DNA of 64,000 bases from a virus. The notes beneath the pieces are model-generated. The model ran no database searches. It had not been told where the DNA came from and was given only the letters and a program-made list of their open reading frames with translations. Shown one piece after another: positions 10,364 through 48,733 of this stretch. Both the position numbers and the translations under genes were made by a program. The stretch spans positions 1 to 64,000 of the IMG/VR virus record IMGVR_UViG_3300042295_000443. The stretch is one strand, 5' to 3'. Numbering within the stretch: the stretch's first letter is position 1; the number at the start of each line of letters is the position of its first letter.

Positions 10364-10941
10364 AAGTCAAATTCATTATAATTTTTTAAATCTTCACTTT
10401 CTTTTGCTTTATACATATTTTTTAAAACAGTTTTTTGATAAGCAAGTTTAGCTCTTTTAGCTGGATCAACTGCTACATACATATTCCAGTTTTCTGGATA
10501 TGTTTTAGCAACTAATCTTTTAAAATCTCTACAAGCTACAAATTCCCAAAATTCTCTATTTTTCATTTTATGTTTTAAAGCATAACTAGTAAAAAATATT
10601 TTAGCTAACTTACCATCTGTTTCCCAATTTCTATTAGTAACTATAACTCCATATTTAGTAGATTTGGCAAAGTCAATATTTTCTTTTTTACTTTGCTCAC
10701 ATGTTCCAATAAATAACCATCCAATAGATTCTGGTAATTGTACACCATCTCTTACATCTATTACAGTTTGATAAACATGTGTATTAAATGTTTTTCCTAT
10801 CTTCTTTAATACAGTGTCATCAATATGTTTATACTTAGAAAATTTCTTTTTAAAACTTCCTAAGAAATCAGAGTTTAAAACACTATAAACCTGTGGTCTA
10901 AACCTTGGAGCTTTAACATCTGGCTTTTTAAATTCTCTCAT
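10360..10941 (-). CDS. IHF/HU-like protein (conserved in crAss-like tail block)
   Basis: Basic 193-aa protein. DGVQLPESIGWLFIG resembles the HU/IHF beta-arm start; synteny agrees. Confidence 0.45.
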   Translation of the reverse strand: MREFKKPDVKAPRFRPQVYSVLNSDFLGSFKKKFSKYKHIDDTVLKKIGKTFNTHVYQTVIDVRDGVQLPESIGWLFIGTCEQSKKENIDFAKSTKYGVIVTNRNWETDGKLAKIFFTSYALKHKMKNREFWEFVACRDFKRLVAKTYPENWNMYVAVDPAKRAKLAYQKTVLKNMYKAKESEDLKNYNEFDL

Positions 10942-10952
10942 ACTATACTAAT

Positions 10953-10965
10953 TAATATACTAAAA
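10953..10965 (-). promoter_or_regulatory. Late promoter motif TTTTAGTATATTA
   Basis: One of about 10 GTATATTA copies lying just upstream of minus-strand starts. Confidence 0.6.
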
Positions 10966-11919: not shown

Positions 11920-13551
11920 TTATCTTACAAAAGCTGTTAAGCCATCTAATGAAAATTTAAATCCTCCTACTTCTAAGGGTGCTCCTGCATCACAGGAGAT
12001 AGGCCACACTATATTATGAGTATCTGTATTTAATGGAGAATTGACAGCTGCTGGAAAATTTTGAACATCACTTGTTGCTCCAATATAGTTTGAAAGAAAT
12101 TCACCACTTCTTGCATTTGTAGTTAAAAATCTTGCTGCTGATTCTCCAGTAAAAGAATTAGTATCAGAACTATTTAATTCAAATAATTCTAATGTTGAAA
12201 TTCTAATAGTTTTATTAACTGTAATTACAATATTAGCAACAGCTGACATAAATGCTGTTCCAACACCAACACCATTAACTACTGTTAATTGTCTTGACAT
12301 AAATGCAACAGGTGCAGTATAATCTGCATCTAATATATCTGCTAATGCAACTACTGAAGTTGGTATTACAGATGCTCCATTATTAAATAACAGTCTTCCA
12401 TTAGCATCTTGTGTTACACCTCCAATTCCTGTAAAAGGAAGTACTTGCATTACATTATTATAAGAATCTTCATTTAATAAGTTTACAACAGAACCTGCTC
12501 CATTATCTAATGGTATAAATACATATCCTCTAAAATAAATTGTACTTCCAATTTTTCTACATTGAGGACCTTGAAAACCAGTATAATATGCAAAACCATC
12601 TAAGTCTTGCCATCCTGTATCTGTTAAATCAGCTGTTATAGTAAATACTGGTCCTGAAGTTACTGACACATCTATAGTATCAGTTGTAGTTCCAACTACA
12701 TCAATTAAAGTAGCATATTGATAAATATCACATAATACTATCCATAAATTATTTATAGCTCCAGCAATTGTTGTAGGAGGAGAACTTATCCATGTTCCAG
12801 CATATGCAATTGAAAAGGATGTACCATAAATAAGAGATAGATCTGCATTAGAAACACATTGAGAAAGTACTGCTGCAGTAATATCAGCAGGAGAACCTGT
12901 AGCTGATGTGAGTGCGCAATATCCATATGTACTATCATTTATTAAAGCATCTACTACTACATCAATAGGATATGCTCCTGGAGATACAACTACACCACTT
13001 AAATCACAATTTACTGCAATACTTGGTAATGTAAATGTTGGCGGTAGTGCTGTTTCTAATACAGTAACTCTTGTATCTAAGTTTATAATATCAAAATTAA
13101 TAGTATTTATTTGATTAATAATTCCACAGATAGCTATTCCCATTGATGTTGCATATTCTGTAACAGTCATAACAGTTGTAGTACCTATGATAAAGCAAGG
13201 AGCTACAGTAACTAAAGTATCTGCAGAAGCAGACTTTGTTCCTCCTGCTGCAACAGCAATAATAGTAGCATCAGCCTCTACTTGTAATTCACAAATTTTA
13301 TTTATTAAAAATTGTATTAACTCTTCAAAATTAGAAGGAGGACATGCAACAAGATTAAAACATGCAAGATCATAATTAGATATTTTTAATGTTTCCATTA
13401 TAGTACATAATTCTGTTGCAAGTTTATGAACAACATCAGAAACTGTATCTCCAGCACATAACTTTATACAAGGAATATCTGGTCCTTGCCAAATAACACA
13501 GTTACTTGATATTGGACTACAAGGAGAATTATCTAAATTTAAAGGTTTCAT
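11920..13551 (-). CDS. Structural (fibre/hub-like) protein, Cys-rich N-terminus
   Basis: 543 aa. CSPISSNCVIWQGPDIPC is paralogous to CSEIIDAQCVVYTGLDIEC of the downstream gene; DTGWQDL fibre-like motif. Confidence 0.5.
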   Translation of the reverse strand: MKPLNLDNSPCSPISSNCVIWQGPDIPCIKLCAGDTVSDVVHKLATELCTIMETLKISNYDLACFNLVACPPSNFEELIQFLINKICELQVEADATIIAVAAGGTKSASADTLVTVAPCFIIGTTTVMTVTEYATSMGIAICGIINQINTINFDIINLDTRVTVLETALPPTFTLPSIAVNCDLSGVVVSPGAYPIDVVVDALINDSTYGYCALTSATGSPADITAAVLSQCVSNADLSLIYGTSFSIAYAGTWISSPPTTIAGAINNLWIVLCDIYQYATLIDVVGTTTDTIDVSVTSGPVFTITADLTDTGWQDLDGFAYYTGFQGPQCRKIGSTIYFRGYVFIPLDNGAGSVVNLLNEDSYNNVMQVLPFTGIGGVTQDANGRLLFNNGASVIPTSVVALADILDADYTAPVAFMSRQLTVVNGVGVGTAFMSAVANIVITVNKTIRISTLELFELNSSDTNSFTGESAARFLTTNARSGEFLSNYIGATSDVQNFPAAVNSPLNTDTHNIVWPISCDAGAPLEVGGFKFSLDGLTAFVR

Positions 13552-43125: not shown

Positions 43126-43625
43126 AATAAATAAGTTTGTCACAAATGTATAAATATTTATAATACTATAAAGCATAATATAGTTTACAAAACTATACTA
43201 TTTTGTAACTTATATGTTACATTATGCATGCATATTCTGGAAAAATTCATGCAGGTTATATACTTATAGTGGAAAATTCCCATCACTAAAACGGTTATAA
43301 TCCTGTTATGGTGGAAAATTCTTACACAAAGTTATATGGTTTTTTAGTATGTGAGATGTAGAGGTTGGGTGCTATGATACAACCCCCCGCCAAATCCTGT
43401 GGAGGTGGTACCCCCCACCAACTTGAGGAGTGTGTCATAAATTCTAGGAAATATTTTAGAAAAAAATCCTGCTGGGAAAGAAACCTAGCTGCTACAACAG
43501 GAGAGGAGAGACAAGAGGTGACATGCTATGTCTACTACATGTACTATGCTAGTGATGTGCTAGCAAGAGGAGGGAGGCAGGGTGCTATATAATAGGGGTG
43601 TGTACTATATGTATAATATAGTATA

Positions 43626-43660
43626 GCCTTCGGCAGATTATATAACAGCTTATAACTACT
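43626..43660 (+). promoter_or_regulatory. Early hairpin-promoter repeat 1
   Basis: GCCTTCGGCAG-N7-AACAGCTT-ATA-ACTACT. Confidence 0.7.
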
Positions 43661-43684
43661 ATGGAACCAACTAAACTTTGTATC

Positions 43685-43753
43685 ATGATTGTATATGCTG
43701 TAATAAACGGAGTAGTTACTGTTAAGGAATGGGTGTTAAATCCTAATGCTTAA
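43685..43753 (+). CDS. 22-aa peptide MIVYAVINGVVTVKEWVLNPNA (30 aa if ATG 43661 is used)
   Basis: Lies between repeat 1 and a hairpin at 43759-43781. Leader AACCAACTAAACT is shared with the ORF at 47265. Confidence 0.45.
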   Translation: MIVYAVINGVVTVKEWVLNPNA

Positions 43754-43793
43754 TGTTTGAGGGAGCTGTAATAGCTCTCTTAACTATGCTTAA

Positions 43794-43828
43794 GCCTTCG
43801 GCAGATGGTACTACAGCTTATAACTGCT
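43794..43828 (+). promoter_or_regulatory. Early hairpin-promoter repeat 2
   Basis: GCCTTCGGCAG-N7-TACAGCTT-ATA-ACTGCT. Confidence 0.7.
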
Positions 43829-43869
43829 AAGGATATATTATATTTATTAACCATCTAAAACTTAAAAAG

Positions 43870-44136
43870 ATGAGCAATGTTAAAGGATTCTTAATCAGTG
43901 TAAGTGACACTGTAAAAACAAACACTAATGGAACTGAATTCAGATCTTGCATAGTAGCCATTGAGGGTGAAAACTATTTTGCAAAAATCTGGGAGAAATC
44001 TGTTTCCAAAGCTGTTGTTGGCAATGAGTACACTGTTGAAATGATTGTTGATGGTGAAAACTTATGGTTAACATTGTTAACTGGTGTTACTGCAACTATT
44101 GCAACACCTAATATGCTTGCACACCTACTTAAATAA
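43870..44136 (+). CDS. Small OB-fold-like protein, paralogue A
   Basis: Five-strand pattern; near-identical motifs to 44967..45242. Confidence 0.6.
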   Translation: MSNVKGFLISVSDTVKTNTNGTEFRSCIVAIEGENYFAKIWEKSVSKAVVGNEYTVEMIVDGENLWLTLLTGVTATIATPNMLAHLLK

Positions 44137-44143
44137 TAGGTAG

Positions 44144-44174
44144 AAGATGACACCCTTAATTGGGTGTTATCTTT
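44144..44174 (+). terminator. Terminator hairpin
   Basis: AAGATGACACCC-ttaatt-GGGTGTTATCTTT. Confidence 0.65.
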
Positions 44175-44182
44175 ATAGTTAA

Positions 44183-44217
44183 GCCTTCGGCAGGAAATGC
44201 TACAACTTAAAACTACT
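44183..44217 (+). promoter_or_regulatory. Early hairpin-promoter repeat 3
   Basis: GCCTTCGGCAG-N7-TACAACTT-AAA-ACTACT. Confidence 0.7.
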
Positions 44218-44250
44218 CATAGTATTAATGTTAAATTTAAACTATATATC

Positions 44251-44454
44251 ATGGACACAACAACTGTATTACAAATTATTGCTATGCTTGAAGGTGATGC
44301 AAAATCATACATTAAACACCTTGATAATACTAATGACCCTTTTGAAACAGGGTACATTAAAGGTTATCATGATGCTTTAACAAAGCATGCCCACATGCTG
44401 CAAGAGTATATTGAACTGCAAGTAAATTATGCAGAGAATGCATTAGGGGAGTAA
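44251..44454 (+). CDS. Small helical early protein
   Basis: Likely start MDTTTV at 44251, downstream of repeat 3. Confidence 0.6.
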   Translation: MDTTTVLQIIAMLEGDAKSYIKHLDNTNDPFETGYIKGYHDALTKHAHMLQEYIELQVNYAENALGE

Positions 44455-44465
44455 TCCCCTTTTTT
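44446..44465 (+). terminator. Terminator GGGGA-GTAA-TCCCC-U tract
   Basis: Perfect stem with GNRA loop and T run; identical hairpin at 46129. Confidence 0.75.
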
Positions 44466-44491
44466 AAACTGTAATCCCTAAATTAAAATAT

Positions 44492-44596
44492 ATGTTAATA
44501 GTTATTGGAAATGTAATGTTTGTTGCTATAATAGTGTTTATTGCCCGTTGTGGCTACAAGCTAGAAAAGGCTGATGAAGAAAAGGAAAGGGCTTAG
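44492..44596 (+). CDS. 34-aa single-TM peptide
   Basis: MLIVIGNVMFVAIIVFIARCGYKLEKADEEKERA, followed by a hairpin plus T run (44577-44611). Confidence 0.45.
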   Translation: MLIVIGNVMFVAIIVFIARCGYKLEKADEEKERA

Positions 44597-44672
44597 GCTC
44601 TTTCTTTTTTTGCTCAATCATTCATTCTTATGGAGTGGCTTGCGCCACACCTTTTATGTCTTTCTTTCAATG

Positions 44673-44707
44673 GCCTTCGGCAGGAGTCTCTACAGCTTAG
44701 GACTTCT
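44673..44707 (+). promoter_or_regulatory. Early hairpin-promoter repeat 4
   Basis: GCCTTCGGCAG-N7-TACAGCTT-AGG-ACTTCT. Confidence 0.7.
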
Positions 44708-44811
44708 GTGGAGTGTGCCTTTGCCTATGAGGATAAGATGTTACACACTTATAAAGTTCTCTCTGAAAAAGAACTTGGACAACTACATAGTAATATGTGG
44801 TTGTTTTTTTT
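44708..44811 (+). ncRNA. Candidate small RNA of about 100 nt
   Basis: Between repeat 4 and a terminator; stems AGTGTG/CACACT and AAGTTCT/AGAACTT; no credible complete ORF. Confidence 0.4.
44780..44811 (+). terminator. Intrinsic terminator
   Basis: CAACTACATA-GTAA-TATGTGGTTG followed by a T run. Confidence 0.75.
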
Positions 44812-44877
44812 GGTAGTTCAATGCTTGGCAGCTGCATAGTAAGTACTGTGTAGCAAAACTAATTTATTCTAGATTGG

Positions 44878-44912
44878 GCCTCCGGCAGGTGCCTTTACAG
44901 CTTTCTACTGCT
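44878..44912 (+). promoter_or_regulatory. Early hairpin-promoter repeat 5
   Basis: GCCTCCGGCAG-N7-TACAGCTT-TCT-ACTGCT. Confidence 0.7.
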
Positions 44913-44966
44913 GTGGATATAAGATTGTGAGAAAGCCTCACAACAAAACCAACCCCTATTTGCAAA

Positions 44967-45242
44967 ATGGAGAAAATGTTAAGAGGTACTCTTATCAGTT
45001 TTTCTAATGAGGCAAAAGCCAATGTGAATGGTACTCAGTACCGTTCTTGCATTGTCAATATTGGAGGTGAAAATTACTTTGCAAAGCTTTGGGAGAAATC
45101 CTTGGCTAAGGCAGTAATTGGAACTGAGTACAATATTGAGGCTGTAGTAGATGGTGATAACTTGTGGTTAACGTGCCTTACGGGCGTTAGTGCAACTATT
45201 GCTACTCCTGCTACATTCGCTGCTTTGTTAGCAGAATTGTAG
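44967..45242 (+). CDS. Small OB-fold-like protein, paralogue B
   Basis: NGTQYRSCIV..GGENYFAKLWEKS..KAVIG.EY....VDGDNLWLT.LTGV.ATIATP shared with 43870..44136. Confidence 0.6.
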   Translation: MEKMLRGTLISFSNEAKANVNGTQYRSCIVNIGGENYFAKLWEKSLAKAVIGTEYNIEAVVDGDNLWLTCLTGVSATIATPATFAALLAEL

Positions 45243-45306
45243 GAAGTATCCTAGACTGAGTAAGACTCGGAGTGTACCACTACTTGGCAACAGAAGTGGA
45301 AAATAT

Positions 45307-45346
45307 TAATGAACTACATAGAAATATGTGGTTCATTACTTTTTTT
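45307..45346 (+). terminator. Intrinsic terminator
   Basis: AATGAACTACATA-GAAA-TATGTGGTTCATT then T run; paralogue of the 44780 terminator. Confidence 0.7.
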
Positions 45347-45351
45347 AAACA

Positions 45352-45378
45352 GCCTTTGGCAGAAAGAGTATACAAAAT
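45352..45378 (+). promoter_or_regulatory. Degenerate promoter repeat 6
   Basis: GCCTTTGGCAG-N8-TACAAAAT; both the loop and the downstream box are mutated. Confidence 0.4.
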
Positions 45379-45450
45379 AAAAGATAATATTTGCCTTGGC
45401 AAGTACTAATAGGTACTGTGTAGCAAATAGTCTATATATATACTTAACCG

Positions 45451-45486
45451 GCCTCCGGCAGGTGGGGCGTACAGCTTTCAACTTCT
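45451..45486 (+). promoter_or_regulatory. Early hairpin-promoter repeat 7
   Basis: GCCTCCGGCAG-N8-TACAGCTT-TCA-ACTTCT. Confidence 0.7.
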
Positions 45487-45841
45487 TTGAGTGTGGTTAG
45501 GCCACGGTCATCTAGACCTACTAACCACCTATGTAACTATTAAAACTAGATTATTATAACAAAGTCTCCAGCCTGTGCAACAATGTGACTTTGGTACTGA
45601 TAATCAGGTAGTTATAAAATGAGATATGTGAGAAAAAGAGGAAGAATGAGATTAACTATTAACCTATCCAAGAATTTATAGGCAGAAATAGTCAGCAGAA
45701 ATGGTCTTAAAGCCTAATATTATATAGTATATAGCTAAAACAGACTTAGTATATACATTAAGAATAGTATTATCTCTTTCTATAGTTAGAGTAACATAAT
45801 AACTTATTCCGGAATTAAATAAATTTAAAACTATATATACT

Positions 45842-46138
45842 ATGAAAGATTTCATTCACACAGGTTGGTGGGGACCTACATTAACTACCACTGAAGATCC
45901 TGAATTAAAAGTTATTGAAAGAGATAATGGTCATTCTTGGACTATGAACTTTTATGTTGGTCATCATTTAATTGATTGCATAAATATGGAATGGTGCCGT
46001 GGTACTAAACTAGACAAAGATGTTCTTAGACTTCCTGTGTATAGTGATGAAGGTATCTACTTAGGTAGTCTTGCTAAAAGATTAGAAGATGCAATTAATG
46101 TTATGCATCCAGAACCTATGTTTCATACAGGGGAGTAA
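45842..46138 (+). CDS. Hypothetical early protein
   Basis: ORF track; A/T-rich leader. Confidence 0.6.
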   Translation: MKDFIHTGWWGPTLTTTEDPELKVIERDNGHSWTMNFYVGHHLIDCINMEWCRGTKLDKDVLRLPVYSDEGIYLGSLAKRLEDAINVMHPEPMFHTGE

Positions 46139-46147
46139 TCCCCTTTT
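46129..46147 (+). terminator. Terminator GGGGA-GTAA-TCCCC-TTTT
   Basis: Identical to the 44446 hairpin. Confidence 0.7.
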
Positions 46148-46154
46148 ATTTAGT

Positions 46155-47065
46155 ATTGTTGCCTTTTCTTTAACCAGGCAAGTATCCAGTAAGTTGCTGG
46201 CGTGGGACTGTCCAGTATAGTTACAAGACAGTAGGGTTTGGTCTATTTCCCTTAAAGACCATTAAGTACACAATGTTGTTACCCTCAGAGTTTAGATACT
46301 CATGGTGTGTGCGTTAAACCTATTATAACGGTTACTAAAACAACAGGTCAGCTCTCGTGACCAAAGGATAAACCAGTAATGGTATAAAGTGATATGTTGG
46401 TAACATATTGCGCAGGAGTAATCCTGTCTACAGAAGAGTATTGTAACTACCTACATTTTGGTGTGCTTGTGGCCTAACGGTTGATGCATAGAGATGTAGA
46501 CTTTCTAACAGGTAGGAAGTTGAGACAGAAATGTCAATAGAAAGTGCAATAGGTAACAATAGTACATCTCGCCAAGATGGAAGTTGTTATTAGTGAGATG
46601 TTCTTTATGCTACTAGAAATAGTGTGTATTTACATCAAACAGTGAGTAAGCTTGGCCGCTTAAAGCAATGTGAAGTTATAACTAAGGTACTCAAAAGGTA
46701 TTATGTTATATAAAGTTGGAACTACTTCACATTATTTCCTGAACCGCATTTAAACTAAAAACTTAAAAGCAAAGAATGTTCTAGCACTTATTAGTGAAAA
46801 TGCTCTTATCCTACTGCAATATGTAGGTACAGAAGACCCGCAAGGTTTATGTAAAGGGACTGATTAATATCTTAACTAGCAGTAGACATACTGTGTATCC
46901 CGTAAGGAAGTTGGTATGAAAGGAAACTTATTGCACTAATATGTAAAAGTATGATGATACTATAAATCATTGAGCATGTTGTTTACTTATAGAAATATAA
47001 GTGTGTATGAGGAGAAGAAATTTTCCAAAAATAGCAACATGAAAGGTCAATACTCATCCTTTCAA
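46155..47065 (+). ncRNA. Giant structured non-coding RNA (GOLLD/ROOL size class)
   Basis: About 900 nt without an ORF in the track. Many stems with GNRA loops and G-U pairs on the + strand. Long-range helices 46363-46369/47056-47062 and 46436-46443/47048-47055. Confidence 0.7.
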
Positions 47066-47238
47066 TAGTAATGCACCATTTCTACTTCACAAGGGTAGAC
47101 AGTTGTAATGTATGAACGCAACACTACTAGATTTTATCACTAGAAAGATGTTACATAGGGTTTTAATTAAAGAAGACTGATAATCTTTTTTATAACCTGC
47201 CGGAAACTTACATTATAACTGAGTGCAGAGTGATATTA
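47063..47238 (+). ncRNA. Twister-like self-cleaving ribozyme 1 (P1 type, long P5 insert)
   Basis: UAA-UGC-A-CC ... P4 UCUAC/GUAGA with loop UUCACAAGG ... 13-bp P5 ... GCA-GA-GUGA. Pseudoknots UCAC/GUGA and CC/GG. Confidence 0.65.
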
Positions 47239-47264
47239 AATAGTAACCAACTAAACTATAATAT

Positions 47265-47417
47265 ATGATTTTTCAATTGATTGCTCAAATTATTAAAGAT
47301 GCTGATAAAGTATCAAACAAGAAATTAGATAAAGCTGCTTATGCAGATTATCTCAATACTCTTTCTCTAGATGATCTACTATTCCTTAAGGATAGTTATA
47401 GTTCAGAGTTAGTATAG
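47265..47417 (+). CDS. 50-aa protein between the two ribozymes
   Basis: MIFQLIAQIIKDADKVSNKKLDKAAYADYLNTLSLDDLLFLKDSYSSELV; below ORF cutoff; A-rich leader. Confidence 0.55.
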   Translation: MIFQLIAQIIKDADKVSNKKLDKAAYADYLNTLSLDDLLFLKDSYSSELV

Positions 47418-47450
47418 TACTTATTCCTGCAAGATTAATTTCTTGTGGGA

Positions 47451-47577
47451 TTAGTAATACACCACTTCTCATTCCCAAGGTGAGACAGTTGTAATAGTAA
47501 GAGAGCAGGTTGCTTAGTCACACCTGCGGTAAATAATACTAAATCTTACACATTACAACTGAGTACAGAGGGATAAC
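47451..47577 (+). ncRNA. Twister-like ribozyme 2 (P2 mismatched, possibly attenuated)
   Basis: UAA-UAC-A-CC ... P4 UCUCA/UGAGA with loop UUCCCAAGG ... P5 CAGUUGUAAU/AUUACAACUG ... ACA-GA-GGGA. Pseudoknot UCCC/GGGA covaries with copy 1. Confidence 0.55.
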
Positions 47578-47693
47578 AAGGGTCATAACCTTGGGGCATA
47601 ACTAAGAGCTAGTAAGAAGACATAGAGTTCATTTTATTATGAAAGATACAACTCTTATTAGAACAACTCTTAGTTAATGCTTTATAAATATGT

Positions 47694-47933
47694 ATGAAAT
47701 ATATACAATTTATAATTGAAAGTAATTCTAATAAGAAATTAGATGCTTTCACTAAAGAATGTATTAATGCCATCAGAAGATCTGGTGCTGTTAAAGCTGG
47801 TCCAATACCTTTTAAAGGTAAAAGATTATTTTATTGTTACAGTCCTAATGGAAAGACTATTGATAGACTTATGTCATTAAAATGTCCTAAAGGTGTGTTA
47901 GTAACAATAAATTCTTTGGAAAATCCTCAATAA
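47694..47933 (+). CDS. Ribosomal protein S10 (uS10/NusE) homologue lacking the ribosome-binding loop
   Basis: SGAVKAGPIPF-KG-KRL...SPNGKTIDRLMSLKCPKGVLVTI aligns with S10 GA.V.GPIPL...(K/L)RL....PT.KTVDALM.L.L..GV.V.I. Confidence 0.75.
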   Translation: MKYIQFIIESNSNKKLDAFTKECINAIRRSGAVKAGPIPFKGKRLFYCYSPNGKTIDRLMSLKCPKGVLVTINSLENPQ

Positions 47934-48005
47934 AAGGGGTTAGTTAAAGCTGAAATAACTACAAAGCTTTGTTTTTAACTTAAAATTAAACTTAAAAATA
48001 TACTT

Positions 48006-48263
48006 ATGGATACTGTTTACTGGACTATGAAAAATGGTCAAAAGATAGATGTTGATACAATGGATATTCAACATCTAAGAAATACTCTTAAAATGCTTAT
48101 TAGAGCTAAGAGAGCACAATCTGTACCTAAATTTCAGGTACATGGAGAAATTGCTAGTGAATTTGCTGATATGGCTATGCTATATAGTATTTCACCTGAA
48201 TTAACTTGTCAATGTGATGAGGTACATGAATGTCAACAGTGTTATGAAGAATCTAAAAACTAA
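48006..48263 (+). CDS. Hypothetical protein with C-terminal CxC...CxxC
   Basis: ORF track. Confidence 0.55.
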   Translation: MDTVYWTMKNGQKIDVDTMDIQHLRNTLKMLIRAKRAQSVPKFQVHGEIASEFADMAMLYSISPELTCQCDEVHECQQCYEESKN

Positions 48264-48267
48264 AATT

Positions 48268-48378
48268 ATGGAAAAGATTGAAGTAACAATGCAAGAGATT
48301 TGGAAGGCTACTAAGCCTATTATCTATAAGAATAAGAAGAAATATTCTAGAAAAGATAAGCACAAAACTAGCAGGTGA
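48268..48378 (+). CDS. 36-aa basic peptide with KNKKKYSRKDKHK tail
   Basis: Below ORF cutoff; starts 4 nt after the previous stop; the stop codon lies inside hairpin AGCAGG-tgaaagt-CCTGCT. Confidence 0.55.
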   Translation: MEKIEVTMQEIWKATKPIIYKNKKKYSRKDKHKTSR

Positions 48379-48391
48379 AAGTCCTGCTTTT

Positions 48392-48733
48392 ATGATTACT
48401 AACTTAAAAATTAAACTTATGAATAGAAATTATCCCTTTGGTTATGGTGTGTTAGCCGGTCTACACACTGTTAAAATAAATGTTAACTTATTAGTTGCTG
48501 ATGCAAGTAAATTAGTAGACAAAAATGAACACTTAGCAATTTACTCTACAGGTAGAGGTGACAGAATAAGAGTAGAAGGTTTTATAACAGGAGCAAATTT
48601 TTCAAATTTTATTAAAGATTTGGAAATATATAAACTTGATTATAAAATAAATAAACTAATAGAAAGAAAAGTTCTTATATTAGATACTTCTATATCTACT
48701 GCAATAGCAGATCTTAATGATTTACCTTTTTAA
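48392..48733 (+). CDS. Hypothetical protein ending DLPF
   Basis: ORF track (start more likely MNRNY at 48419); SSB-like acidic DLPF tail. Confidence 0.5.
   Translation: MITNLKIKLMNRNYPFGYGVLAGLHTVKINVNLLVADASKLVDKNEHLAIYSTGRGDRIRVEGFITGANFSNFIKDLEIYKLDYKINKLIERKVLILDTSISTAIADLNDLPF

Follow-up and report, generated by a model that had tools for sequence, protein, structure and literature searches.

Twister-like elements, a GOLLD-family RNA and a loop-less S10/NusE homolog in a probably mosaic early region of a crAss-like phage

The region described here lies in a 64,000-nt window (the whole stretch of DNA that was analysed) of the 89,161-bp record IMGVR_UViG_3300042295_000443 and carries, all on the + strand, copies of a promoter-like repeat, several small genes, a candidate sRNA, a large RNA of the GOLLD family, two twister-like elements and a gene for an S10/NusE homolog. 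Portal, terminase and capsid were matched in PHROG, the terminase sharing no more than 24% identity with its counterparts in Flavobacterium, Bacteroides and Cellulophaga crAss-like phages. A 2256-aa ORF contains DFDID, known as the catalytic motif of gp66, the virion RNA polymerase for the early genes of phi14:2 (Drobysheva et al., bioRxiv 10.1101/2020.03.07.982082); the giant DFDID ORF and the rightward orientation of the early block are shared with phi14:2, whose early transcripts likewise include abundant long non-coding RNAs. The best reading of the region is a rightward early block in an uncultured crAss-like phage infecting freshwater (lake) Bacteroidota. A first-pass annotation had placed it at the first-entering end of the genome; it is located instead mid-contig, at a divergent switch, and no end repeats were found in the record, whose ends are classed as 'linear' in IMG/VR. 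Most of the parts listed in that annotation proved to be real; this location, hairpin promoters of the N4 type and the ArfA likeness of a small peptide were not supported.

Six copies of the repeat, with consensus GCCTYCGGCAG-N9/10-TACARCTT, were observed, against none expected from shuffles. They are located at 43626..43665 (GCCTTCGGCAG-N9-ACAGCTT), 43794..43833, 44183..44222, 44673..44712, 44878..44917 and 45451..45490, the second and the fifth lying 5' of two OB-like paralogs; a degenerate seventh half-copy is found at 45352. No further copy exists in the 89,161-bp record and, as already proposed, none follows 45486. The repeat was seen in one relative only (L002), which shares the sixth copy. 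Terminator-like hairpins, whose abundance had also been pointed out, are sited between units, 18 being observed in the region versus 3.5 expected. The first 1.9 kb would consist of six mini-units, each composed of a phage-specific promoter-like repeat, a small gene or sRNA and an intrinsic terminator, putatively transcribed by the DFDID-type virion RNA polymerase of the phage.

The repeats resemble the hairpin promoters of the N4 virion RNA polymerase in their short palindrome, which encloses a 3-nt loop (GAA or GGA, template strand), and in clustering where the early region begins. Their stem, however, is 3 bp long, compared with 5-7 bp in N4 promoters, and the polymerase is here of the two-barrel crAss type, unrelated to the T7-like N4 enzyme; the term 'hairpin' was not retained for them. 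Since the early transcripts of phi14:2 share no common upstream motif (bioRxiv 10.1101/2020.03.07.982082), the promoter reading is without precedent, and the sharp six-fold repeat heading the early mini-units, with its putative promoter function, distinguishes this phage from phi14:2. For the genes after 45.5 kb, a second repeat motif was sought and not found, nor were Bacteroidota -33/-7 promoters enriched; it is therefore possible that they are reached by read-through.

The OB-like paralogs, encoded at 43870..44136 (88 aa) and 44967..45242 (91 aa, with a terminator at 45307-45338), are 65% identical across 84 aa. The duplication reported in the first pass is thus real, while the OB fold is plausible only, with a model pLDDT of 60 and Foldseek E-values of 0.02-0.1 to SSB/OB proteins; Pfam and PHROG searches with the first paralog gave no match. 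Between the two genes, a 67-aa protein (44251..44454), with a 69% identical homolog in L007/L033, has its stop codon within the loop of the terminator at 44445-44460. A segment of about 110 nt at 44699..44812 has a promoter repeat, a 5' stem-loop, a terminator (44777-44806) and no credible ORF, as expected from the sRNA originally suggested, an identity that is no more than plausible at a fold z of -2.67. Further downstream, ORF98 (98 aa, 45842..46138) has no relatives, and its terminator (46129-46144) has the same sequence as the hairpin at 44445.

From about 46186 to 47069 the sequence is free of ORFs. A match to the Rfam GOLLD model RF02032, spanning the whole model, was found at 46668-47060 on the + strand, with 88 bits and E-values of 2e-22 to 6e-25; as the gathering score is 150, standard annotation misses this GOLLD. 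The giant structured RNA noticed in the first pass can be identified with it, at E 2.4e-22, although below the gathering score. The RNA, of about 880 nt (46186..47069), comprises a variable 5' domain (46186-46667), the 5' limit of which was placed by comparison with L059, and the Rfam-matching 3' domain; L009, L010 and L037 contain copies about 90% identical. Size (over 800 nt), phage origin, the variable 5' and conserved 3' domains and the retention of most model helices through compensated pairs liken it to known GOLLDs (Weinberg et al. 2009), including the env-38 14-mer nanocage (Kretsch et al. 2025, PMC12286853), and by homology it would form an RNA nanocage. Unlike typical GOLLDs, which lie near tRNA islands, it occurs in a record where no tRNA was found; it is also carried by a crAss-like phage, and its 3' end, in relatives the 5' end too, abuts a twister-like element, an arrangement of which a limited survey of the GOLLD literature found no mention.

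The two twister-like elements, A (47069..47233, 108.6 bits, with an insert of about 95 nt in P5 and cleavage predicted between U47069 and A47070) and B (47455..47573, 99.6 bits, predicted cut 47455/47456), are the sole copies of the motif in the record; B may be impaired, because two of its P2 pairs are mismatched. They belong to a family found in at least 120 IMG/VR phage contigs, with at least 111 distinct sequences. Counted by cell, standard pairs make up 98.8% in P2, 99.5% in P4, 96.8% in P5 and 100% in the pseudoknot T1, while P1 is paired in just 55% of cells. Compensatory changes affect 22 of the 28 pairs, values reached in none of 500 shuffles, and covariation is found in P2, P4, P5 and T1; T2 never varies, and hence draws no support from covariation. 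The first-pass proposal of two twister-like ribozymes is borne out in that both are pseudoknotted elements of twister architecture from a covarying family, with cleavage predicted.

In the family, L1 is UAA/GAGGG and L4 is UUCCCAAGG, as in twister. Conserved nucleotides cluster in L1 and L4, the latter with CCCAAG inside its loop, and the covarying T1 is formed by CCC of L4 with GGG of L1. L4 has one additional nucleotide, P1 is short and irregular, and T2 is CC:GG, whereas twister has GC:GC. The order of the parts (P1, U^AA, P2, L2, P4, P5, P2', GAGGG, P1') is that of type P1 twisters (Roth et al. 2014; RF03160; PMC5408937, PMC6154101). In contrast, P3, present in 78% of known twisters, is absent, and P5, present in 1% of them (PMC6154101), always occurs and carries inserts that range from about 10 to 250 nt. 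Also as in twisters, the elements are intergenic (none of 123 lies inside an ORF), occur in phage contexts and have ribozymes of other classes nearby: in L042 and L099, bona fide hatchet ribozymes are encoded by the same strand at a distance of about 1 kb, in keeping with the clustering known for self-cleaving ribozymes (PMC6765202). Sequence and structure together point to a variant class of the twister self-cleaving ribozyme, in which P1 would be open and weak, P3 missing, P5 closed and extended, and T2 altered.

The predicted cut of element A, 47069/47070, falls 9 nt past the end of the Rfam GOLLD match. A twister-like element was present at the GOLLD 3' end in 9/9 loci examined and also at the 5' boundary in 5/9, counts biased by the retrieval of most loci via the twister motif; L146, retrieved without it, has the junction as well. 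This placement fits the earlier suggestion that the ribozymes mature the giant RNA. Cleavage by element A would free a GOLLD RNA of about 880 nt ending in a 2',3'-cyclic phosphate, the downstream mRNA having a 5'-OH and the ribozyme at its start. A second twister-like copy would, in relatives, define the GOLLD 5' end as well.

A homolog of uS10/NusE (79 aa, 47694..47933) matches Pfam above cut-off and has Lys-Gly in place of the ribosome-binding loop of about 27 residues; the family profile aligns to uS10 in two stretches, skipping S10 residues 43-69. The loop-less S10/NusE claimed in the first pass is therefore confirmed, and the fold agrees, the modelled protein matching engineered NusE(delta-loop) with a TM of 0.89-0.90 and an rmsd of 0.8 A. 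The deleted loop serves as the anchor of S10 in the 30S subunit; S10 without it reportedly, in work by Luo et al. in 2008, supports antitermination and not ribosome function. The engineered chains, known from NusB-NusE and NusE-NusG-CTD complexes (PDB 3D3B, 3R2C, 2KVQ), align to the phage family in one unbroken stretch; the phage protein differs in being natural, a member of a small metagenomic family (73-81 aa), and 27-31% identical to the engineered chains (E. coli, Aquifex). Sequence and model suggest that it is a natural counterpart of the engineered transcription-only NusE. This separate module, a presumably host-derived NusE probably unable to anchor in the 30S subunit, would most likely bind NusB and/or the NusG KOW domain of the host and so change how the host RNA polymerase terminates.

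The twister-like elements might instead be conserved structured RNAs devoid of self-cleavage, such as protein-binding leaders, translational regulators or recombination homology anchors between phage modules. Rfam twister models, the 66-nt minimal form included, detect none of them, P1 is weak, the elements lie exactly on mosaic breakpoints between relatives, and many are 30-60 nt ahead of start codons (36/107 at 60 nt or less). We consider this unlikely: the L1/L4 nucleotides forming the twister active site are near-invariant and the helices covary, a signature of a catalytic core and not of a simple hairpin leader, T1 covaries in two independent lineages, hatchet ribozymes are neighbours, and twister activity is known without P1 (PMC5408937). 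Somewhat less probable still is that the loop-less S10, rather than acting in transcription, is built into ribosomes in place of a resident subunit, adjusting translation for the phage as phage-encoded bS21 or bL12 would. Exchangeable ribosomal proteins are common in phages (PMC6375957), the whole globular domain of S10 is preserved, with a confident model, and the closest PDB relative by sequence is S10 of the Flavobacterium ribosome; yet the missing 27 residues are those removed from the engineered NusE in 3D3B, 2KVQ and 3R2C, the NCBIfam S10 equivalog scores 34.9, far under its cut-off of 85, and the main text of PMC6375957 does not list uS10 with the ribosomal proteins of phages.

In the integrated interpretation offered at first, a single ribozyme-matured ribonucleoprotein is made of GOLLD and/or the loop-less S10; it would act in antitermination or modulate translation, and allow passage of downstream terminators. 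The parts share one strand and span no more than 1.8 kb, the loop-less S10 equals an engineered NusE that retains NusB and NusG contacts, GOLLD pull-downs reported ribosome binding (PMC12286853), and promoters were not found past 45.5 kb. Against this, the S10-like gene occurs without GOLLD in 4/4 other phage records, one 100% and one 90% complete; the present record served as positive control, its GOLLD being recovered by the same search. Conversely, GOLLD occurs without the S10-like gene in 5/5 records searched, which is weak evidence because these are fragments, 15-29% complete. L002, with flanks 93-98% identical and flanking genes kept, has neither the block of ORF98, GOLLD and element A nor the S10 block. 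In addition, Nus factors act on host RNA polymerase, while crAss-like early genes are served by the virion polymerase (bioRxiv 10.1101/2020.03.07.982082), and no phage-encoded NusB or NusG was found. A single ribonucleoprotein is thus very improbable, although ribozyme placement and likeness to a transcription-only NusE stand. Since the parts, the GOLLD-ribozyme pair excepted, occur separately in related phages, the independent distribution that the first-pass annotation had itself named as refuting its model, a mosaic of cassettes is indicated and not one RNA-protein machine. The reading we favour, with some reserve, is a mosaic early region of independently exchangeable cassettes, in which self-cleaving ribozymes would cut transcripts and define GOLLD ends, the loop-less S10 being a separate transcription-only NusE; downstream, promoters and terminators would be replaced by RNA-level punctuation through the twister-variant ribozyme.

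The OB-like paralogs, ORF98 and a basic 36-aa peptide (48268..48378) each have at most one relative among 138 related loci. The peptide had been called ArfA-like; its C-terminal tail, short and rich in Lys/Arg (KNKKKYSRKDKHK), and its stop codon, placed in a hairpin (the terminator at 48370-48388), recall this alternative ribosome-rescue factor. Membership is not supported, as no ArfA profile matched, the sole match being DUF7230 at 17.8 bits, under cut-off, and homologs were absent from the 138 loci. A 50-aa ORF at 47265..47417, between elements A and B, has a 71% identical homolog in L002. The 85-aa Cys-rich protein encoded at 48006..48263 has homologs at 10 loci, in other phages often directly 3' of twister-like elements.

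The window belongs to a single virus record of 89,161 bp, of which it covers the first 64 kb, with a G+C content of about 30% and a completeness estimated at 75% by CheckV. PHROG profiles detected, on the minus strand, the portal, the major head protein and the large terminase; the identity of the latter to the terminases of crAss-like phages of Flavobacterium, Bacteroides and Cellulophaga does not exceed 24%. A 2256-aa ORF containing the sequence DFDID is located outside the window, on the minus strand at about 82.4-89.16 kb of the full record (G000:C1), and runs off the contig end. DFDID is the catalytic motif of gp66, the virion RNA polymerase which transcribes the early genes of the crAss-like phage phi14:2, in which no common early motif was found (bioRxiv 10.1101/2020.03.07.982082). 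At about 43.3 kb the strands diverge and the sign of the GC skew flips; the island under study sits just right of this switch and therefore opens the rightward block. It lies mid-contig, in a record whose ends are reported as 'linear' by IMG/VR, no end repeats being found, and its earlier placement at a presumed first-entering end was not confirmed. Neither the island nor the segment formed by the GOLLD RNA and the twister-like elements gave a blastn match among 50,697 GenBank phage records, so that no cultured model phage was found. The divergent intergenic region at 43340-43600, just left of the first of the promoter-like repeats described below, is locally G+C-rich, with runs of C and of G; its role might be that of an origin, a leader or a packaging site.

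Two elements of the island, A (47069-47233) and B (47455-47573), both on the plus strand, share the core UAAUGCACCAUUUCUACUUCCCAAGGGUAGACAGUUGUAAU ... AUUACAACUGAGUGCAGAGGGAU, where dots stand for a variable insert. The core was found in 37 viral contigs by a first pattern scan and then in at least 120, as well as in 3 Bacteroidota or lake MAG contigs. A covariance model (R1), built from 26 copies and used to search about 1 Mb of loci, produced 126 matches, 111 of which distinct and exactly 2 within the window; no further copies turned up when the complete record was scanned for the motif. The 123 elements examined all lie between genes, one third of them at most 60 nt upstream of a start codon.

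The common layout consists of U^AA, P2, P4 with a CCCAAG loop, P5, P2' and GAGGG, with conserved bases concentrated in L1 and L4, as in the twister architecture (PMC5408937); the consensus used for comparison was that of Osa-1-4 and of the same source. In the alignment of 26 sequences UAA is invariant and, on the opposite strand of L1, GAG-G is invariant, while changes at the fourth position are always accompanied by a change of its T1 partner. In the alignment of the matches to the covariance model, paired cells amount to 98.8% in P2, with 2 covarying pairs, to 99.5% in P4, where all four pairs are covarying or compensatory, and to 96.8% in P5, where double changes are seen in 10 of 10 pairs. 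The pseudoknot T1, which joins CCC of L4 to GGG of the 3' GAGGG and falls outside the covariance model, is 100% paired, and its CAC:GUG variants occur in two lineages, one including element A and the related loci L009 and L010, the other, independently, L093. These pairing values were reached by none of 500 shuffles, and slid controls fall to 30-45% paired. P1 is weak, with 55% of cells paired; this helix is dispensable for twister activity (PMC5408937). A possible T2, formed by CC:GG pairing between L4 and L2, hardly varies (104 of 106 cells are CG), so that covariation speaks neither for nor against it.

The family differs from known twisters in several features: P3 is missing, L4 is one base longer, CC:GG replaces the usual T2, and P5, present in 1% of known twisters (PMC6154101), is here obligatory and extended by inserts ranging from about 10 to 250 nt. 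The Rfam twister models gave no match at E <= 10 on a 591-nt stretch, RF03160 gave none on the whole record, and a 66-nt minimal form found in locus L059 was not matched by any Rfam twister model either. Judged on sequence, the elements would thus belong to the twister family by architecture, but not by profile. Both of the twister-like ribozymes proposed by the first-pass annotation are present and share the layout of the family, with its covariation of P2, P4 and T1, but neither copy is detected by the Rfam models. The variant family is large, extending over at least 120 phage contigs, and, since no Rfam model detects it, is missed by current annotation.

An HDV-like (theta-type) topology was discarded, because the 3' strand pairing with UGCAC comes after the long hairpin and not before it. 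A tRNA within P5 was considered for locus L024, whose insert includes a T-arm-like stretch, but ARAGORN calls none. Element B contains two mismatches in P2 (UACAC versus GUACA), because of which it may be impaired; its counterpart in the close relative L002 is canonical. As to catalysis, hatchet ribozymes scoring above the Rfam gathering score of 51 were detected in L042 (6387-6553, plus strand, 79 bits) and L099 (2899-3036, minus strand, 82 bits), about 1 kb upstream of twister-like elements and on the same strand. Self-cleaving ribozyme classes are known to cluster (PMC6765202), and these neighbors provide independent support for putative catalysis by the twister-like elements. The stretch of about 1 kb between hatchet and twister-like element is ORF-free in both loci, is built of blocks conserved in many loci, and may constitute another ribozyme-bracketed large RNA. 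No RtcB and no RNA ligase, able to repair or ligate 5'-OH and cyclic-phosphate ends, was found in the record.

The giant structured RNA postulated upstream of element A is probably a member of the GOLLD family. In a permissive Rfam scan, 46668-47060 aligns to all 416 positions of the GOLLD model RF02032 with 88 bits and an E-value of 2.4e-22. The gathering score of this model is 150, which explains why a scan of the whole window at gathering thresholds returned nothing; permissive scans returned GOLLD only. Similar scores, between 85 and 101 bits, were obtained for related loci (85.5 for L009, 91.6 for L037, 100.8 for both L059 and L125). Comparison with L059 sets a shared 5' limit at ATCCAGTAAG, about position 46186. 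The resulting plus-strand region, 46186-47069, is about 880 nt long and ORF-free, and has the variable 5' half and conserved 3' half described for the family (PMC12286853); by its length (more than 800 nt) and its occurrence in a crAss-like phage it likewise fits this description, GOLLD RNAs being encoded by phages or prophages. Typical GOLLD loci are frequently, if not strictly, found near tRNA genes, whereas no tRNA gene was detected anywhere in the 89-kb record, the window included. About 100 nt opening the region (window 46151-46260) recur with 80-96% identity in L023, L042, L070 and L122, phages without GOLLD, directly upstream of twister-like elements, and may represent a small module of its own or else a scar left by recombination. 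The 3' domain includes at 46800-46810 the sequence UGCUCUUAU, which we take to resemble a BoxA core; no weight was given to it, because chance alone would produce such a 7-mer about 10 times in 89 kb.

The predicted cut of element A, U47069^A47070, is located 9 nt beyond the end of the GOLLD match. An nhmmer search with the GOLLD 3' domain detected 7 further loci, each of them adjoining a twister-like element in the same manner. A second retrieval relied on a pattern specific for GOLLD and made no use of the twister motif; it yielded 6 of these 7 loci and a new contig, L146, in which GOLLD is flanked by twister-like elements on both sides. Altogether, a twister-like element is found 3' of GOLLD in all 9 loci and at its 5' boundary in 5 (L037, L059, L077, L125 and L146), while upstream of GOLLD in L009, L010 and the window there is a terminator or some other sequence instead. 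The coupling of GOLLD to a ribozyme is firm; no mention of ribozyme flanks was found in the GOLLD literature searched. To our knowledge, no biological role is known either for GOLLD or for bacterial twister ribozymes: the fixed junction predicts a real substrate for the latter, and exact ends for the nanocage-forming RNA.

Downstream of element B, the plus-strand ORF at 47694-47933 encodes a 79-aa protein matching the S10 profile PF00338 with 25.6 bits (cut-off 21.2), and belongs to a small family of proteins of 73-81 aa, whose profile detects uS10 in the PDB with an E-value of 3e-12. Against full-length uS10 the match is split into two stretches (residues 2-41 of the query on 3-42 of S10, and 43-73 on 70-100), S10 residues 43-69, the extended loop by which S10 binds the ribosome, being absent, while the engineered loop-deleted NusE chains 3D3B, 3R2C, 2KVQ and 2MEW are matched by the profile in one stretch. 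The AlphaFold (AF2) model has a pLDDT of 86, a TM-score of 0.89 to 3D3B_J, and fits within 0.8 A the NusE(delta-loop) of the NusB-S10 complex. The earlier reading as a loop-less S10/NusE was thus confirmed. Scores with the equivalog models are far under the cut-offs (34.9 versus 85 for NCBIfam NF001861, 28.4 versus 72.75 for TIGR01049). The best sequence match is S10 of the Flavobacterium ribosome, which suggests capture of the gene from a Bacteroidota host. As neither NusB nor NusG is encoded by the phage record, the protein is most likely a transcription-only NusE acting on host factors, and would be a natural version of the construct engineered to split the ribosomal and transcriptional roles of S10. 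No description of a phage-encoded S10/NusE was found in the literature searched. An S10-like gene is also found in contig L139, which carries a phage-encoded tmRNA gene at 11927-12410.

The first-pass annotation had combined these parts in one model, where GOLLD and/or the loop-less S10 form a ribozyme-matured ribonucleoprotein acting on antitermination or translation. Its inventory of parts was largely right, and unusually rich, but the single GOLLD/S10 particle finds no support in the distribution of the parts. When the island proteins were compared by tblastn to 138 related loci, scattered and independent distributions were observed. L002, whose flanks are 93-98% identical, lacks both 45826-47264 and 47504-48401. 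GOLLD was not detected at E <= 0.01 in four other S10-bearing records, two of which are 90-100% complete, while the same search finds it in the present record; conversely, no S10 was found in five GOLLD records, all being fragments. In L139 and L142 divergent twister-like matches are located just upstream of the S10-like gene, as element B is in the window, so that the ribozyme, and not GOLLD, is the common neighbor. With the exception of the GOLLD-twister pair, the parts thus occur independently in relatives, which the first-pass annotation had itself named as one half of the case that would refute its model.

The best-supported mechanism is accordingly one in which ribozymes punctuate a mosaic early region, GOLLD is coupled to a ribozyme, and the loop-less NusE is separate; promoter use, cleavage, cage assembly and Nus binding are the functional steps which we infer. 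A wider proposal, to which we would give somewhat less than even credence, is that an uncatalogued, large class of twister variants serves crAss-like phages of fresh waters and related Bacteroidota phages as their standard RNA 'punctuation', excising nanocage-forming GOLLD and other non-coding modules of about 1 kb from early transcripts, and that the natural loop-less S10 of the same region is a phage-made, transcription-only NusE retuning host termination. If true, this would provide the first concrete biological job for twister, a maturation pathway with defined ends for GOLLD, and a case of the two functions of S10 separated in nature.

Transcription of the island would start from a promoter-like repeat, GCCTYCGGCAG-N9/10-TACARCTT, found in six copies, all on the plus strand between 43626 and 45477 and all carrying TACAGCTT; none is expected from shuffles. 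Apart from a half-copy at 45352, the 89-kb record is otherwise free of it, in agreement with the earlier statement that no copy follows 45486, and among the 138 related loci it was found only in L002. Upstream of each copy lies an intergenic gap or a terminator-like hairpin, downstream of it a short unit; the units comprise two small proteins (43870-44136 and 44967-45242), a 67-aa protein, an ORF-free segment of about 110 nt with a strong terminator at its end, and a 98-aa ORF (45842-46138). Its position makes the repeat a candidate for an early promoter used by the crAss-type virion RNA polymerase, for which we know of no promoter motif. Its previous interpretation as a hairpin promoter was not confirmed: N4-type promoters have an extrudable stem of 5-7 bp and serve a T7-like virion polymerase, whereas the palindrome found here is only GCC-TYC-GGC, with a stem of 3 bp, which makes the N4-style reading weak, and the polymerase is of the DFDID two-barrel type.

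Terminator-like sites are enriched (18 versus 3.5 expected), and the view of an island whose parts are separated by many terminators holds. Identical hairpins (AGGGGAGTAATCCCCT) occur at 44445-44460 and 46129-46144, each with the TAA stop of the upstream ORF in its loop. Since the T-tract of the terminator at 46129 is interrupted (TTTATTT), transcription from the sixth repeat may plausibly pass it in part. Further downstream, Bacteroidota -33/-7 promoters are not in excess (21 observed versus about 20 expected), and no second repeat family was found which might serve as promoter.

The two small proteins are 65% identical to each other, so that the proposed duplication stands, while their proposed OB fold is a low-confidence assignment. 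They have no Pfam or PHROG match. A single-sequence AF2 model of one paralog is all-beta, with a low pLDDT of 59.8 and a strand order compatible with the OB fold, in which a helix separates strands 3 and 4 of a five-stranded beta-barrel; its best Foldseek neighbors are OB/SSB proteins, at non-significant E-values of 0.02-0.1. The likely product of 48268-48378 (plus strand), a 36-aa peptide with a basic tail, had been described as ArfA-like. This was not confirmed: at E <= 10 the single Pfam match is DUF7230, whose cut-off of 27 is not reached (17.8 bits), NCBIfam gave no match, and no relatives were found among the 138 loci.

Other sequences were observed in the neighborhood of twister-like elements. 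Homologs of the 85-aa Cys-rich protein encoded at 48006-48263 are present in ten loci (L001, L004, L011, L014, L016, L018, L024, L025, L027 and L038), often immediately 3' of a twister-like element. Five elements, some of them degenerate, are clustered within 1.6 kb in L119 (7079-8637), with no ORF of at least 60 aa nearby. Downstream of the element of L046, L050, L053 and L069 a conserved non-coding sequence, ATTTCTGTTGCATATGGAACACAT...GGCAACAGTGGG, recurs, which may be another structured RNA module. Contig L032, which also includes a twister-like element, carries a phage-encoded tmRNA gene at 1601-1977. An amber-suppressor tRNA (anticodon CUA, labeled Pyl by ARAGORN), located at 10866-10955 of the twister-bearing phage contig L027, hints at stop-codon recoding in that relative.
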